Positions 6,001 through 33,000 of a stretch of 64,000 bases of DNA are shown here, one piece after another. Made by a program: the position numbers. Source of the stretch: Candidatus Zixiibacteriota bacterium (GTDB lineage Bacteria > Zixibacteria > MSB-5A5 > GN15 > JAAZOE01); assembly GCA_043819555.1 (NCBI GenBank), contig JBDREQ010000027.1, positions 1-64,000 of the forward strand, in the 5' to 3' direction. Every line of letters begins with the position of its first letter. Position 1 is the first letter of the stretch.

Positions 6001-9000
6001 CGTATTGTATGTATAATGCGATAGCTCAATATCAAATTGTTCAAAAGGATAGGCGAGGATGGCCGGAAAACCCGCAGTTTGCGTCGGAGATCAAACAGCC
6101 CATGGGGGCGTTATAACTGGCCCCGGGTGCCCGACGGTATTAATCGGAGGCAAACCGGCGGCGGTGATGGGGGATATGCATGTTTGCCCGATGCAAACCC
6201 CTGCGGTAGTTCCCATTCCACACGTAGGCGCAACAGTTATTGCCACAGGAGTATTAGTCTTGATAGGTGGTAAACCGGTGGCTCGCATGGGAGATACGGC
6301 GATTTGCACCGGTCCCCCGGACGCATGCATCGTCGGATGCCCTACGGTTTTAATCGGTGACGGCGGCGGCGGTGGCGGCGGAGCCGGAATGGGGCAAGAT
6401 GCCAAAAAGGCGACCGGTTCGACGGCAGCCGTGGAAGATAAAGAGGCACATTACCTCGACGTGAAATTCAAAGATAAAGGCGGCAAACCGATTACTGGAG
6501 TCGATTATACAGTCAAGGGTCCTGATGGTCGCAAGATTCCGGGGAAACTGGTAGGGCAGATTAAGAAAATCGGCGTCGAAGAGGGAATTTATGAGATTGA
6601 GTTGAAAGCCATCACCGACGCCAAATGGTCGAAAGAATCGGCCAAATTGGGCGACAAAGTAAAACTGCAGGCCGAAACTTCCGGCATCGAGGATGGTACC
6701 GACGCTGAATTTAATATATATGTTTCGGATATAAATTTCCCTGAAGAAAAATTGACAGCAATTACAACAAAAGTATCCGGCGATAAGGCAGAAGTTGAGT
6801 GGGAATTAAAAATTGATAAAGATTTATTATCAATACAGGACGGCAAAGAAAAAAAGAAAAATTACAGCTCACCTTCATTTTGCTTTGAAGTTATTGCCGA
6901 TGGTTCCAAAAGACGCTCCAAGTACACTACTTATAAAGCCGAAGTCAAAATCAAATTGATAGATAAAGACGGCAATCCTGTAAAAGACGCCAAGTACCGG
7001 GTGAAAATGCCGAATGGCAAAATCGTATCTGATAAACTGGATTCCAAAGGCGAGGCGACTGTTAAAGATGTTCGCCCGGGACGGGTGCGCGTTTCATATG
7101 AACCAAAGAAAGATTGACATTAGCGAGGATTTATGCATGGTCCGGAAGTAGTCGGTGTTGGCGCTGAAGCGGTGGCTGATGCCGGTGGTGAAGCCGAACA
7201 TCGAATTGTTGCCATACCAATTGATATCATTGAATTTGAAAACACTTTGTTCAATGATGGCAGTTCGGTATTGATGCCGGATCGGGTTAATGATGCTGAA
7301 GCCGACACCCCTCCTCCGCCCGGTTTTGCCCTCATTGCTCTGGCTTATAAGCAATTTGAGATGGATGACCGCAAGAAAATGCTGGTGTCGGGTCATCATG
7401 ACGCTGGCGAAAATTTTGCGGAAAATCGAAGCCTTTCAGAATTTCGTGCCAAGAGCGTTCTATATTTATTGACTGGCAATAAGAATCAGTGGGCGGTAGT
7501 TTCGGCCGGGCATCATCAAATAATAGATTTTAAAAGAGTAATGGCTTATTTCAGCCGTGTTAAAGGTTGGAATTGTGCTCCTCCTATGATAAACAATGAG
7601 TGGGCGGAAGCGGATGGGCCGATGGTTCAACGATTTTTCAACCGTTATAATCGTTCAGCATCAAGAGCCGCACGAGTTCCCGGTAATTTTCATGAAGCGA
7701 TAAATACAAGTGAAAACCATCTCTGGCCGGAAAGGGCCTGGGAAGTAGTGTACGATCTTTATATGGATGGCATCAGGCGGGCTCTGGGCGTGCGATTGAC
7801 AGAAATGAATACTCTGCGGGGAATGCATCAATATGCCAATCCGGCTCAATGGCTGTCATGCGCCAATAGAATTCCAGTCCATGCTGATTTTCAGGATCGC
7901 TATCGGGGCGGTAATAATAATTGCCGGGTGGAGATATTGTTTTTCAATCAGGACATTAATGTTCTAACCTGCCCTGTAGCGGAAGCTGTCGCCGAAAGGT
8001 TTCCAATGTGCGAGCGGGGAGGATATGAACTTACTTTTTGCGATATTGAGGACCTCAATGCCTGGCCCTATCATTTGAAATTTACCTATTACAATCGAGT
8101 TAAGAATTCGGTTGAAAATGTTATTAATTGCCTGGAATTAAAGGCCTACTCCGGAAACAGACGACAAGAAGTCAATAATGTACGACAGTCATTTAGTGAT
8201 GGAGTCTATACGGTTAAGGTTCCCCAAAACAGAATCCGAAATCAGATTCATTTTGGATTTGAAACGGTTCCGGGCGATCCATACCCGCCGGGCAATACGA
8301 TCTTTCTTTATACCGATGCCGCGGCTTCGGTCCCGGAAAGAAGATCCTTATCAACCGCGCAGGTGACGGCTCTGACGGCTCTAAACCGACAGAAATATTA
8401 TGATTTGCCTTACAAATGGTCCACCCGCAACTACTGGACCCGATATCAGGATGGGCGCAATATCGAAGGCGGTCGTTATCGGCAGGTTGTCAGAAGAGAG
8501 CTTCGTTTAAAACCGCATGGCAACAATAAGACTAAAGCCAGCGAACCACTGACGTTTTCGCTGGATGATATAGTATTGGCAAAGAACAACCACAGTCAGC
8601 AGATAAAAGATTTACTTCCCAACGGGACGACCGAACGAAATCTGAACAATAATTCCCGTTATGCGCTATTTCATATCGAGCACCGCGATATCGCGGGTCA
8701 GCCGGAAGTCGCTTATGATAATAAGAAACTTAAAGCGTTGAGGATTCACGACCCCAAGGTTGATGAGCCGAGTTTTACCGATGTCGAATTTAATAAGAAT
8801 TTGATCACCGATGTTCCCGATGATACCAGAGTAATTTGTTTCGCCGGCAAATTTCATGATGTTTATGATAAACGGTCGCATGACCGCGATCCTGAATTTA
8901 GTTTTAATCGCGATCATGTTATGGGAGCTCGTTTGGCGGTTTTGGAAGATACATCGATTCATATTAAGAAAGTAGTCGATGCTGAAAATGACGCTGATGC

Positions 9001-30000: not shown

Positions 30001-33000
30001 TACAAGCGCAGCGGCCGGGCGCTGGTTTATTGGGATCTGTTTTCACAGGGAGTGATTAGTCCTAATGATACGGCAGTGTGGCAAACAATACAACAACAGA
30101 TTCAAACGGATCGAGGACTATACGGGCAGGAATTATCCAAAGAAGAAATGGCTCTTGGTGATGCGCTGTCCGAACGAAAGATAAAGAAGGTCCAGAAAGT
30201 GGCCGCCAAAAAGGCGGCGGTAGAACTGGGCGATTTGATTGATAAAATCAACGGAAATGATTCCCCGTCCTATCGGCTGGATCGGGCAGTTGCCGAACTA
30301 AGGACAATTAAAGGCCAGCTTGACAGTGAGGCAGACAAAGCCAACCTGACTATGATAAACAATTATATTTCCGACGCCAAAAAATGGTGGAACCCGAGAA
30401 CCTATTCATTTAAGGCTGAAAGCATACCGGGGGACGGACATTTGCACGTCGCGGTTGCATCCAAGGGACAGGATCCCGTTTGGGAGGAAGGGGATCAAAT
30501 ACTGGCCGGGTACGAAAAGAAAATAACGTGGAAAAAGGATGATGTTATTCATATCGCCCTCGATACTCTGGGTGCTCCGGAAATGTGGGGGAGTGAAGCG
30601 AGCGATAAGAAAATTCTAAAAAATGACTTTTCTATATTTGACATGGAAGGCGAAATTTCGTTTGATAATATAGGCAAGAAAATTAATATTACTTTCAATC
30701 CGGGACTCAAAGGAAGAATGCCGGAGTTGAAATAAAACATGTCTTGGTTGAGGAGTTTGTATAATGAAATTCAACACAATATATAGAAAATCGTTTAGTG
30801 CGGGCCTGATTGTATTTTTCTGGTTTGCATTTACGGCCTTGGCCTCCGGGGCCACACTGCAGCTTCCGCAAGGTACCGATGTGAAGCTGAAATTTGCACC
30901 GGGAATTAAGATTTCTTCGGGGAATCTGGCCGCTGAAGTGCCGATTATTTGTTACCTCGCCGAACCAATTTTAATCGGAGGAAAGACGGTCGTTGAGGAA
31001 GGGGCTCAAGCGACGGCCAAAGTCGCCGAAGTGAAACCGGCCGGCAAAGGCGGTAAAGGCGGCTATATCAAGATCGAGTTTATTGAAGTTGAAACAAAGG
31101 GCGAATATAAAACGGTTGACGGTTCAAAAATCAAATTGACCGGATTCATAGAAAATACCGGAAAGAATAAGAAAACAATGTCGTATCTATTCATCTTTGG
31201 CCTTTTCATCAAAGGCAGTCAGGGTGAGATTAATCCTAATTCGATATATACCGTCAAGACGGCAGGAAGTACGATTCTGGAAAGTAATTAGATTTTAATA
31301 TATTCTGATTATTGATAAGGCGGCCTAAATGGCCGCCTTATTATTGGACAATTTTGATTTCAGCTATAACGGCATAAGCGTCATAGATCATATTGACTAA
31401 ATTACTCCACTTGAGGGGCAATAAGGAATATTTCAGATTCGTCAACATATACCGAATTGACCGGAATAGAATCAAGTACATCCTGACCGGTATTCTTATA
31501 CATGTATTGGATCACCGCAGTTATTTTTACCGTCGCGGTATCAGGCAGCCAGTCGGCATAAGTTCGAAATATGGAGCGAGCCATTTGAGCATCGCCGTTG
31601 GCGTCTGTCAGTGACTGCGGTGGAGCGGCCAAGGTATAGGCGCCTATTGCGGTTCCTTCATGCCAGGTGTAACAGCTATCGCAAAGAGTTATTCCTTTAA
31701 TAGTGTACTCAATATACATTGATCCGGTTTGAGAGACGATAAGCTCGAGCGAAATATCTCCCAGACTTTGGATGTTAAATAGATTAATGTCGATTATGAC
31801 GCTATCGCCCATAATGACTTCGCCGTAATGGGGTGAAAAATTGAGCATAGGCCGAGCCGGGCGGAGTTGTATAGGCAGCTCAATGTCGCTATCAGGCAGA
31901 ATATCCGTTACGGTTGAGCCTTGATATAATTCCACATTGGCGACATTATATATATGAATTTTAAACAACCGATTTAGACCAGCAGGGACTTCGATTTCAC
32001 CCATCATAAAACCGTCAATATATTCCAGCGTATCGACCAGAATTGAATCTATATCCCGAGCCTCCACTGTCAAAAGGCCGTGTGTCACGAGAGCCGATAT
32101 TTTAGATGACGACAGTTGAGCCTTGATATTGACCGATGCGTAATTGACTGCACTTGTGTTAGTAATTTTTTCAGTGCAACCGCCTGTCAAATAAATGACG
32201 ACACCCAGACACGCCAGAATAAACAGCTTATAGTAAAACGCATTTTTCCACATAATTTTTCTCTTCTAAAAAGCGGCGATAAGTCCGCCGGTTATTTGGA
32301 ATCCTCCCAGGCTGATTTTGCCGCCATCGGCATCGCCCGCGAAGTAGGTGAATCCTAAATTAAAATCGACGCCTTCGCCGATACCGCGATCATAATCACC
32401 GCCAAATCCAAAGATTGCCGAACTTCCCTGCTTGTAGATATCTTCAAATTCATTGTTTCCGATAACTCTCAGTTGCACGCGGGGCGTAAACGACCAAGTT
32501 TTATCGGGATGATAAACCAGAGCGGTATTTACAAAAAATTCATTTCCATAAAGGCGCAATTGCTCAAATACTTCTTCGTTGCTATCATAGCTTGTAAGGC
32601 GTCCTCTCAAGAGCAGTCCTATATTTCCAATAAAGCTTGTTTTGGATTTATGTGATTGAATCCCGGTCGATATTTCAAATTGACTGGATGGTTTTCTCAG
32701 TTTTTGCTCATTGGCTTTGTCAGTAGAGAAAAAGGAAAAAGTCATTGATGCCGAAAAAACGGTATTTCCTTTCTTAGTATCGCCATTGGCAGAAATGCTA
32801 ATCATATCGCCGGGATCATAATCGCCTAATCCCTCATACGGCTTATAACTGCCCAAATATTGATAAGAAATCGTTCCCCCGAGTCTTGAAACGCCGTTTG
32901 AAGCGGCTCCACCTAACAAGAGGTTGACGCCCATTCCTTCGCCCATGCGCCGCACCGGGAACGACAAGTAATTCTCTGACAGCAGCACCATCACATTAAA

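Follow-up and report, generated by a model that had tools for sequence, protein, structure and literature searches.

Type VI secretion systems (T6SS) act by contraction of a TssB/TssC sheath, which pushes a tube of Hcp out through the envelope and into a neighbouring cell; VgrG and PAAR form the tip of the tube. In some T6SS lineages, including T6SSii (Francisella) and T6SSiv (Amoebophilus), the anchor is divergent or missing, and T6SSiv is not known to have ClpV. In the T6SSiii of Bacteroidota (Bacteroides fragilis), the membrane complex is TssNQOPR and the synteny is given as tssG-K-N, while TssN has five transmembrane (TM) helices and a cytoplasmic domain resembling the one in EccD, all according to PMC10781749.

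The locus described here lies in a genome of Candidatus Zixiibacteriota (window: the whole stretch analysed, 64,000 nucleotides of contig JBDREQ010000027.1). Judged by sequence, it is almost certainly a working T6SS with an iii-like core, and it likely carries a previously undescribed anchor set, in outline like the anchor of Proteobacteria.

Gene content and distribution of the operon

The locus is a single plus-strand operon (6059–31291) with PAAR, a split ClpV, TssB, TssC, Hcp, VgrG, and TssE/F/G/K, in which 20/20 ORFs are intact. Counts out of 39 refer to full-length relatives:

6059..7117, +: PAAR spike tip with an Ig-like C-terminal extension (352 aa); PF05488 E 9.6e-19, Filamin/SpaA-like region 279–351
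7133..10537, +: 1134-aa protein, variable cargo candidate; found in 11/39
10541..11665, +: 374-aa beta-propeller protein, variable; PQQ_2 E 9e-8, found in 15/39
11523..12158, +: 211-aa ORF with one hydrophobic segment, variable; found in 1/39
12174..12608, +: 144-aa DcrB-family protein, conserved accessory; PF08786 E 2.1e-6, found in 36/39
12611..13753, +: 380-aa conserved accessory protein; found in 37/39
13798..16140, +: 780-aa effector candidate with three hydrophobic, TM-like segments; found in 1/39
16306..17760, +: ClpV/TssH first half, N domain and AAA D1 (484 aa); TIGR03345 positions 4–480 of 852, E 4e-120
17760..18848, +: ClpV/TssH second half, AAA D2 (362 aa); TIGR03345 positions 505–838 of 852, E 2.1e-91
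18878..19324, +: TssB, small sheath subunit; PF05591 E 5.9e-9
19341..20777, +: TssC, large sheath subunit, iii-like; PF17541 E 1.4e-70, model positions 20–422 of 430
20816..21220, +: Hcp/TssD tube; PF17642 E 8.7e-21, Bacteroidales TssD in the PDB (7yw0) E 5.4e-13
21288..23066, +: VgrG spike; Phage_GPD and Phage_base_V, TIGR01646 E 1.5e-47
23075..23449, +: TssE; GPW_gp25 E 2.2e-12, TIGR03357 E 2.9e-9
23453..25141, +: TssF; similar to Bacteroidota TssF by hhalign
25138..26049, +: TssG; PF06996 E 3.9e-16
26151..27593, +: TssK; NCBIfam TIGR03353 E 1.4e-14, Pfam only E 0.0017
27616..28530, +: u304 (304 aa), candidate TssL-like anchor; all-helical cytoplasmic domain and one C-terminal TM helix (261–279)
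28537..30735, +: u732 (732 aa), candidate TssM-like anchor; GTPase-TM-periplasmic layout
30764..31291, +: u175 (175 aa), small secreted protein, last gene of the operon; signal peptide

A preliminary description of this DNA had named the T6SS genes, and all were recovered in place on the plus strand as a complete T6SS, flanked, as it had also said, by Ser/Thr kinases on both sides (3968–5815 and 35873–37621, both on the minus strand). PF17541, which it had placed in at least 142 of 284 Zixibacteria, is carried by 145/285 genomes of the phylum; Hcp is present in 78 of the 80 TssC-centred relatives, and 39/39 full-length relatives keep the core genes intact and in synteny. Searches of the operon proteins against family libraries found no TssA family. 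Next to the locus lies a conserved operon encoding lipoprotein domains like those of CsgG/LpoB, TPR, and a Ser/Thr kinase.

The first-half stop and second-half start of ClpV overlap in TAATG, with AAGGAG 9 nt upstream, and ClpV is likewise encoded by two ORFs in 53/59 relatives (fused in 6/59). On these grounds the two adjoining genes are a natural split, and the sequencing error that the preliminary description had allowed for is ruled out.

The 1134-, 374-, 211-, and 780-aa genes are variable and putatively encode cargo. The libraries searched gave no family match for the 1134-aa protein, the 380-aa protein, or TssF; the earlier statement that ten genes match no family fails for the 374-aa (PQQ_2), 144-aa (DcrB), and 780-aa proteins, all with weak families, the last matching the NCBIfam BTH_I2691 family at E 5.5e-10, under cut-off. 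The start of the 211-aa ORF is uncertain because it overlaps the preceding 374-aa ORF. As to the conserved genes, the PAAR protein is matched in 37/39 relatives over about half of its length, the DcrB family includes Eag-type effector chaperones, and the 380-aa protein consists, by its conservation profile, of a core of about 290 aa and an acidic Ser/Gly/Thr-rich tail peculiar to the present genome.

Subtype of the tail and baseplate

Compared by hhalign with T6SSiii versus T6SSi families, six components gave clearly higher or slightly higher probabilities for T6SSiii: TssB 99.4 versus 17.0, TssC 100 versus 1.2, Hcp 99.8 versus 0.3, TssE 99.7 versus 2.9, TssF 99.8 (over 505 columns) versus 0.2, and TssK 99.9 versus 97.7. 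Only TssG is reversed (34.0 versus 98.0). These values, together with TIGR03353 for TssK, make good the TssF and TssK calls, which had been weak. Homology shows a T6SSiii-like tail and TssE/F/G/K baseplate, with sheath, tube, and most baseplate parts iii-like.

The locus TssC is 27–30% identical to Bacteroidota TssC, where other Bacteroidota TssC are 58–95% identical to the Hymenobacter query, and it scores 239 bits versus 749 for Bacteroides TssC. The subtype call had rested on Pfam, without a tree; in the tree that we built, the locus TssC falls outside a 25-row clade with all 8 Bacteroidota rows (SH-aLRT 98). The known anchors were also sought: DotU, IcmF-related, IcmF-related_N, and T6SS-SciN have no match at E ≤ 1 in the whole genome (97% complete), in agreement with the earlier report of no TssJ/TssL/TssM family, and profile searches of locus and genome found no TssN, TssO, or TssR, whereas the same libraries detected them in a Bacteroides control locus at 227, 95, and 145 bits. 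Neither TssNQOPR nor TssJLM is thus detectable in the locus or genome. Because of the TssC identity, its position in the tree, and the absence of TssNQOPR, the assignment to a Bacteroidota-type subtype iii stands for tail and baseplate and does not hold for the subtype in the strict sense.

Candidate membrane anchor behind tssK

The preliminary description had proposed the unannotated genes as a hidden membrane complex, which is supported for u304, u732, and u175, the four variable genes being putative cargo. We consider it somewhat probable that these three form the T6SS membrane complex. u304 is found in 39/39 and u732 in 38/39 full-length relatives (median identity 54% and 51%), a level of conservation comparable to TssK and TssF, and u175 lies directly 3′ of u732 in 6/6 main-clade relatives (identity 38–64%). 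The module is also kept in zixibacterial clade f5, whose TssC is about 40% identical. Two of the seven Eisenbacteria-type loci carry the u304/u732 pair (u304 HMM E 6e-35 and 1e-29; u732 HMM E 1e-44 and 1e-47); in the other five no module was seen, one of them (L247, 4.7 kb) being too short to tell.

In u732, a Ras-like GTPase domain (~30–310) with invariant G1/G3/G4 residues is followed by a TM helix (340–358), a helical periplasmic region (387–618), and a beta domain (620–720), and the order tssK-u304-u732 is that of tssK-tssL-tssM in a Caballeronia T6SSi locus. IcmF-related_N matches 25/60 u732 family members (best E 0.0019), and hhalign to the TssM family reaches 83.8% (E 7.9e-6, 40 columns around the G4 motif) in a set that held no other GTPase family, the runner-up among the other family alignments tried reaching 4.5%; of 12,802 ORFs from T6SSi and T6SSiii loci, the u732 HMM matched 13 at E < 1, 13/13 being TssM. 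Profile comparison of u304 with TssL gave no sequence similarity (hhalign 0.4%, TM region only), and a Foldseek search gave no match at E ≤ 0.001. Full-model fold searches of u732 were taken up by the GTPase domain. TssM has three TM helices and u732 one. That u304 and u732 are true, very distant homologues of TssL and TssM is conceivable, if doubtful.

Complex prediction for u304 with u732 residues 1–400 scored 0.50, in the weak band of the tool, the best of 3 controls scoring 0.00; at least 83% of contacts agree between runs, with partner pLDDT at least 78. The mark used is reached by 116/157 solved complexes and 2/215 mismatches, and scores of 0.60 or below comprise only 18 of those solved complexes and both mismatches.

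We think it rather unlikely that u304/u732/u175 serve in an accessory or regulatory role, for instance as a membrane GTPase switch timing or positioning firing, with the anchor coming from other genes or being dispensable. The nearest relatives of the GTPase domain point that way: DO-GTPase2 matches 60/60 u732 family members (best E 4.5e-7), more strongly than TssM does; u732 of the present locus scores 14.2 bits, under the cut-off of 27 bits. In the ESM-Atlas, the clusters closest to u732 consist of DO-GTPase proteins and are most frequent in Planctomycetota (score 0.95), so the family may not be T6SS-specific. The invariant G residues would be expected of a switch, in clades f16/f17 the operon stops after the u304 homologue with no adjacent u732, and the neighbouring lipoprotein/TPR/kinase operon could supply envelope parts. 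However, the three genes are conserved like the baseplate and always stand behind tssK, no other conserved TM-bearing candidate occurs within the operon, the size, topology, and long periplasmic arm suit a structural role, and TssM, too, has an NTPase domain (Pfam IcmF-related_N).

An ordinary Bacteroidota-type T6SSiii with TssNQOPR diverged past detection is very unlikely. The core parts do match iii families, the u304 HMM has one weak match to Bacteroides TssO (16 bits, E 0.0036), and 3/51 u304 relatives make weak contact with DUF5454; yet three candidate genes stand against the five needed, u304 has a single C-terminal TM helix against the five of TssN (PMC10781749), hhalign of u304 and u732 against TssN/O/P/Q/R is ≤4.5%, and the null searches and TssC tree above also count against it. 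A metagenomic locus scoring higher with Bacteroidota than with Zixibacteria profiles, moreover, carries a gene with several TM segments between its tssG and tssK. An inactive relic is highly improbable given the intact operon, the syntenic core of the relatives, and the carriage of TssC across half the phylum (145/285). The least credible reading makes the locus an extracellular contractile injection system or tailocin-like particle: in sequence searches of the PDB, TssC does match phage and eCIS sheaths best (E 1.4e-6 to 7e-3), but the locus has a sheath of two subunits together with ClpV, TssK, TssF/G, and Hcp and VgrG of the T6SS type, and no phage tape-measure or tail-fibre family occurs among the 20 proteins.

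On the membrane-complex reading, u304 would be tail-anchored in the inner membrane with its helical domain toward the baseplate, and u732 would combine a cytoplasmic GTPase, whose GTP binding possibly gates assembly, with a single TM helix and a helical and beta periplasmic arm stretching outward. u175 may be the periplasmic partner; a conserved lipobox was looked for in it and none was found, therefore nothing obviously reaches the outer membrane. TssB/TssC contraction would then inject the Hcp tube with its VgrG/PAAR tip into a neighbour cell, carrying as putative cargo the products of the variable upstream genes (among them the 780-aa BTH_I2691-like protein and the 1134-aa protein), and the sheath would be recycled by a ClpV built from two polypeptides. 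If true, this would be a third type of membrane complex for T6SS, on the TssL/TssM/TssJ plan without recognisable sequence homology.

Comparison with described systems

With Bacteroidota T6SSiii the locus shares TssB, TssC, Hcp, TssE, TssF, and TssK as profile relatives (99.4–100%), the PF17541 and PF17642 matches, an Hcp matching a solved Bacteroidales TssD, and the lack of a TssA family. It differs in the missing TssN/O/P/Q/R, the divergent TssC, a TssG nearer T6SSi, the split ClpV, and gene order (G-K-u304 versus G-N-K in the Bacteroides control locus).

T6SSi of Pseudomonadota (TssJ-TssL-TssM) resembles it in having tssK followed by a tail-anchored helical and then an NTPase-TM-periplasmic protein, in TssG (98.0%) and the N-terminal part of TssK (97.7%), and in weak links from u732 to the TssM NTPase and from u304 to the TssL fold. 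Unlike T6SSi, the locus has no TssA and its genome no DotU, IcmF, or SciN families, its sheath, tube, TssE, and TssF do not belong to the i-type, u175 is no lipoprotein, and u732 has 732 aa and one TM helix versus 1151 aa in Caballeronia TssM.

TssC matches no T6SSii or T6SSiv sheath in the PDB at E ≤ 0.01, and, compared by description, the locus differs from T6SSiv in possessing ClpV; this comparison also draws on a review (PMC13584744). Finally, among the library families, DO-GTPase2, of the DO-GTPase2/DO-GTPase1 pair (PF19993, PF19975), comes closest to the GTPase domain of u732, whereas the T6SS context, TM helix, and periplasmic arm of u732 apparently lie outside the family definition.

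Gene content of the locus

Twenty consecutive open reading frames (ORFs) run along the + strand between positions 6059 and 31291, with gaps that are short or replaced by overlaps, in a window whose GC content is even throughout (0.41–0.47). That these genes encode a type VI secretion system (T6SS), as the preliminary description had it, was confirmed: the named parts were recovered by Pfam/NCBIfam, and TssF by profile–profile comparison (hhalign). The two-subunit sheath TssB/TssC, the Hcp tube and the VgrG/PAAR spike are all present, together with the baseplate proteins TssE, TssF, TssG and TssK (TssF by profile comparison only, 99.8%) and the sheath recycler ClpV/TssH, the last as two ORFs. 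The identity of tail and baseplate is thereby established by homology. An extracellular contractile injection system, with a single sheath protein, a tape measure and neither ClpV nor TssK, does not fit the presence of both TssB and TssC, of ClpV and of TssK; no tape-measure family was found among the locus proteins by Pfam/NCBIfam.

Features of the locus (window positions, strand, identity)
6059–7117, +, PAAR (Pfam/NCBIfam)
12174–12608, +, u144, a 144-aa DcrB-family protein
12611–13753, +, u380, a 380-aa protein
16306–17760 and 17760–18848, +, ClpV as two ORFs, together TIGR03345 positions 4–838 of 852
+, TssB, TssE and TssG (identified by Pfam/NCBIfam)
+, TssC (PF17541, E 1.4e-70)
+, Hcp (PF17642, E 8.7e-21)
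+, VgrG (TIGR01646, E 1.5e-47)
+, TssF, without a library family (hhalign 99.8% to Bacteroidota TssF over 505 columns)
+, TssK (TIGR03353, E 1.4e-14)
27616–28530, +, u304, candidate anchor gene
28537–30735, +, u732, candidate anchor gene
30764–31291, +, u175, candidate anchor gene

The split of ClpV, put down earlier to a possible sequencing error, is a lineage trait. The two ORFs meet at TAATG, where the TAA of the first overlaps the ATG of the second, and an AAGGAG site lies 9 nt upstream of the second. Among 59 relatives with both halves complete the gene is split in 53, the halves lying in different frames in 52 and in the same frame in one; it is fused in the other six, three of which are labelled Krumholzibacteria (L021, L023 and L082).

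Conservation separates the machine from its likely cargo. Across 39 relatives with full 10-kb flanks, every core gene is kept in 38–39, u304 in all 39 and u732 in 38, while 36 have the 144-aa DcrB-family protein and 37 the 380-aa protein. The 1134-aa protein (11/39), a 374-aa propeller (15/39), the 780-aa protein (1/39) and a 211-aa ORF (1/39) are kept less often, and are therefore candidates for variable cargo or immunity genes; among them, the 780-aa protein carries three hydrophobic segments and resembles the BTH_I2691 effector family, though below threshold (E 5.5e-10). Searched against 12,802 ORFs of T6SSi and T6SSiii loci, the u380 HMM gave one marginal match and the u144 HMM none. The C-terminal tail of the 380-aa protein (13480–13753, about 90 residues) is repetitive, acidic and rich in Ser/Gly/Thr/Asp; it is missing from 48 orthologues, and conservation falls to 0 past about residue 300. 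Since the first 143 bases of the 211-aa ORF (11523–11665) also belong to the end of the 374-aa ORF, the true start of the shorter frame is probably further downstream.

Both flanking Ser/Thr kinases of the preliminary description are indeed there, at 3968–5815 and 35873–37621, each on the − strand. A convergent operon at 31402–37621 (− strand) encodes unknown proteins of 283 and 395 aa, a Ser/Thr kinase and a pair of proteins that contain CsgG/LpoB-like lipoprotein domains, with TPR repeats in one of the pair as well. It adjoins the T6SS in 4/6 main-clade relatives and could serve the system as an envelope sensor or as a partner in the outer membrane. Among the 29 proteins scanned, none matched an FHA-domain family. 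Near the start of the window, the − strand at 392–2317 encodes a protein of 641 aa whose C-terminal sorting domain is of the type IX secretion kind (Por_Secre_tail, E 8.4e-7).

Relationship of the tail to known subtypes

TssC and Hcp/TssD belong to PF17541 and PF17642, the families that mark T6SSiii, the Bacteroidota subtype with a TssNQOPR anchor, but they score only about a third and a half as high as those of a Bacteroides control (for TssC, 239 bits against 749). We compared profiles of families assembled from loci of three kinds (80 Zixibacteria-type, 80 Bacteroidota, 65 T6SSi), T6SSi being the TssJ/TssL/TssM-anchored type of Pseudomonadota; the T6SSi side of this comparison is weakened because the families for TssB, TssC, TssE and TssF hold only 2–5 sequences.

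Profile–profile comparison of Zixibacteria-type components (hhalign probability against T6SSiii; against T6SSi)
TssB: 99.4%; 17.0%
TssC: 100%; 1.2%
Hcp: 99.8%; 0.3%
TssE: 99.7%; 2.9%
TssF: 99.8%; 0.2%
TssK: 99.9%; 97.7%
TssG: 34.0%; 98.0%

By tblastn on plasmids, the locus TssC matched only Bacteroidota TssC, at 27–30% identity, and three Deinococcus tail-sheath fragments, with no match to any T6SSi TssC; a Hymenobacter TssC used as query found other Bacteroidota TssC at 58–95% identity. Judged by these relationships, the tail is iii-like but distant from that of Bacteroidota.

In an IQ-TREE phylogeny of TssC (LG+G4, 47 rows, rooted on three very distant T6SSi rows), the TssC of the window forms one group with Zixibacteria and Krumholzibacteria (SH-aLRT 99), which next joins clade f5 of the phylum, with TssC about 40% identical, together with row P0121 (100), and then clades f16/f17 and the Eisenbacteria-type rows (84). 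The eight Bacteroidota rows all fall together in one clade (98), itself nested in a clade of 25 rows (98) to which the TssC of the window does not belong, and a FastTree tree of 129 rows agrees with this picture. Because the root sits on a very long branch, we limit the claim to the two TssC groups being separate. The earlier assignment to a Bacteroidota-type subtype iii thus stands in part: the family membership and the iii-like tail hold, but TssC falls outside the Bacteroidota clade and TssNQOPR were not detected. In these trees the locus stands as a separate deep lineage of iii-like T6SS.

Four Krumholzibacteria-labelled loci (L021, L023, L026 and L082) have a TssC that branches within the main Zixibacteria clade (15 rows, support 100), which suggests transfer between phyla or mislabelled bins. 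Many others, among them L007, L011–L013 and L018, carry Ignavibacteriales or Ignavibacteriaceae labels at NCBI and yet cluster with Zixibacteria (TssC 76–85% identity), and these labels look unreliable.

The candidate membrane anchor

Neither known anchor was recognised. TssN, TssQ, TssO, TssP and TssR gave no Pfam/NCBIfam match in the locus, and in the 97%-complete genome TssN and TssR gave none above threshold, the one sub-threshold TssN match (19.9 bits) falling on contig 76, away from the locus; in a Bacteroides finegoldii control locus that library detects TssN at 227 bits, TssO at 95 and TssR_VWA at 145. The reported absence of TssJ, TssL and TssM also held, with no match to the DotU, IcmF or SciN families at E ≤ 1 in the genome and none in the locus. 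T6SSiii is characterised by a multi-TM tssN beside tssG and tssK (PMC10781749), and our Bacteroides control reads G, N, K; the order here is instead tssG, tssK, u304.

The 304-aa product of u304 has no signal peptide and a single hydrophobic helix (261–279). In its AF2 model (51 sequences, pLDDT 87.5) a domain made only of helices leads into a long helix at the C terminus, matching the layout of TssL/DotU, a cytoplasmic helical domain with a single C-terminal TM helix. There is no sequence signal to TssL, TssN, TssO, TssP, TssQ or TssR (hhalign at most 3.4%), Foldseek against the PDB returned nothing at E ≤ 0.001, and the ESM Atlas gave no usable match. One match of the u304 HMM to a Bacteroides TssO (16 bits) was treated as chance because profile–profile comparison gave 0.2%; DUF5454 touches 3/51 relatives (best E 0.0037).

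The 732-aa product of u732 begins with a basic tail followed by GHSNSGKT, and all 60 relatives share G41, K47, G136, K207 and D209. The AF2 model (pLDDT 83.6) comprises a GTPase (35–310), a 60-residue helix containing a TM segment, a helical domain (387–618) and a beta domain (620–720). Against our TssM family, hhalign reached 83.8% (71% with extension) in an alignment of 40 columns that surround the G4 motif; none of the other family alignments tried exceeded 4.5%, a ceiling that also holds for u304 and u732 against TssN/O/P/Q/R. When the u732 HMM was run against the 12,802 ORFs, all 13 matches at E < 1 were TssM (best 0.0085). The third protein, u175, has a signal peptide with no conserved lipobox. 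Its gene lies past the 10-kb flanks used for the 39 relatives; in a set of ten longer regions it directly follows u732 in all six main-clade loci (38–64% identity).

The main rival to an anchor is a GTPase-based regulator encoded by the same three genes. IcmF-related_N touches 25/60 members at E < 1 (best 0.0019), while DO-GTPase2 is stronger, touching 60/60 (best E 4.5e-7); the neighbours of u732 in the Atlas are DO-GTPase proteins about as long as it is, most often from Planctomycetota, the matches listed in structure searches with the full model (Foldseek and VIA-wide) are all GTPases, and the periplasmic IcmF-related and IcmF_C domains found no sequence match in u732. The order tssK–u304–u732 and the topologies of the products parallel tssK–tssL–tssM of a Caballeronia T6SSi locus. 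Complex prediction for u304 with residues 1–400 of u732, from row-matched alignments of 48 genomes, scored 0.50, while the highest of three controls scored 0.00 (the tool grades passes ≤ 0.60 as weak), with contact agreement of at least 83% between runs and a partner pLDDT of at least 78. The links to TssL and TssM are weak, and it is from conservation, position and topology, with weak structural, profile and binding signals, that we infer an anchor role for u304, u732 and u175. In the best-supported reading, the locus encodes a functional T6SS from a deep lineage of iii-like systems, with these three proteins as its putative anchor.

Spread of the module and comparison with known systems

PF17541 occurs in 7/20 family-level groups of the phylum and is absent from the rest; 107/198 high-quality genomes carry it. 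Of the TssC-centred relatives we kept 80 loci, the closest (73–86% identity) being MAGs labelled Zixibacteria, with many others labelled Ignavibacteriales and a few Krumholzibacteria. A search of 1.84 billion representatives gave 446 TssC-like clusters (E ≤ 0.001) whose identity to the query drops stepwise (56, 39, 38, 36, 33% and lower); Zixibacteria, Eisenbacteria, KSB1 and Phaeodactylibacter are among the few names attached to members.

Clade f5 has TssK followed by a tail-anchored protein of 302–303 aa and a GTPase protein of 629–630 aa. Clades f16/f17 keep the u304 homologue, with which the operon ends; no u732 homologue adjoins it in L237 or L240, where large FtsX/ABC-like genes follow on the opposite strand. 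Seven Eisenbacteria-type loci were sampled, six extending past tssG. Two carry TssK together with a relative of u304 (E 6e-35 and 1e-29) and, truncated where the locus stops, the first part of a relative of u732 (E 1e-44 and 1e-47). No TssK, u304 or u732 lies within reach in the other five, of which L247, at 4.7 kb, is not long enough for a verdict. Two adjacent Hcp genes stand in place of one in L243–L249 (Eisenbacteria-type and related). A metagenome scan for KSB1-type TssC gave three loci, two usable; in one, Bacteroidota profiles score higher than Zixibacteria ones, and a multi-TM gene lies between tssG and tssK with a TM-anchored gene after tssK, a TssN-type layout. On this small sample, anchor type follows TssC lineage.

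PMC10781749 confines T6SSiii to Bacteroidota, having met none in over 20,000 complete genomes from the rest of the bacteria, and leaves open three scenarios of anchor evolution; a 2026 review keeps the four-clade scheme and assigns T6SSiii to Bacteroidota (PMC13584744). Literature searches, judged on the openings of abstracts, found no paper on type VI secretion in Zixibacteria, Krumholzibacteria, Eisenbacteria or KSB1; supplementary TXSScan tables might list MAG hits. An iii-like tail and baseplate is common in an uncultured FCB-group phylum (145/285 genomes) and occurs in neighbouring phyla, so that anchor evolution becomes a directly testable question; at 304, 732 and 175 aa the candidate anchor is also much smaller for structural work. 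A tentative further reading, which we consider rather unlikely, is that u304, u732 and u175 descend from an ancestral TssL/TssM/TssJ-type complex that survived in a deep lineage sister to the Bacteroidota T6SSiii. One of the three scenarios of PMC10781749 would then be settled, and the lineage of Zixibacteria, Krumholzibacteria and Eisenbacteria would merit its own subtype name. Here the iii-like tail goes together with a candidate anchor that is compact and follows the TssL/TssM layout; were that descent real, the common ancestor of T6SSi and iii-like systems would already have had a TssLM-type anchor, and TssNQOPR would be a later replacement on the branch to Bacteroidota.
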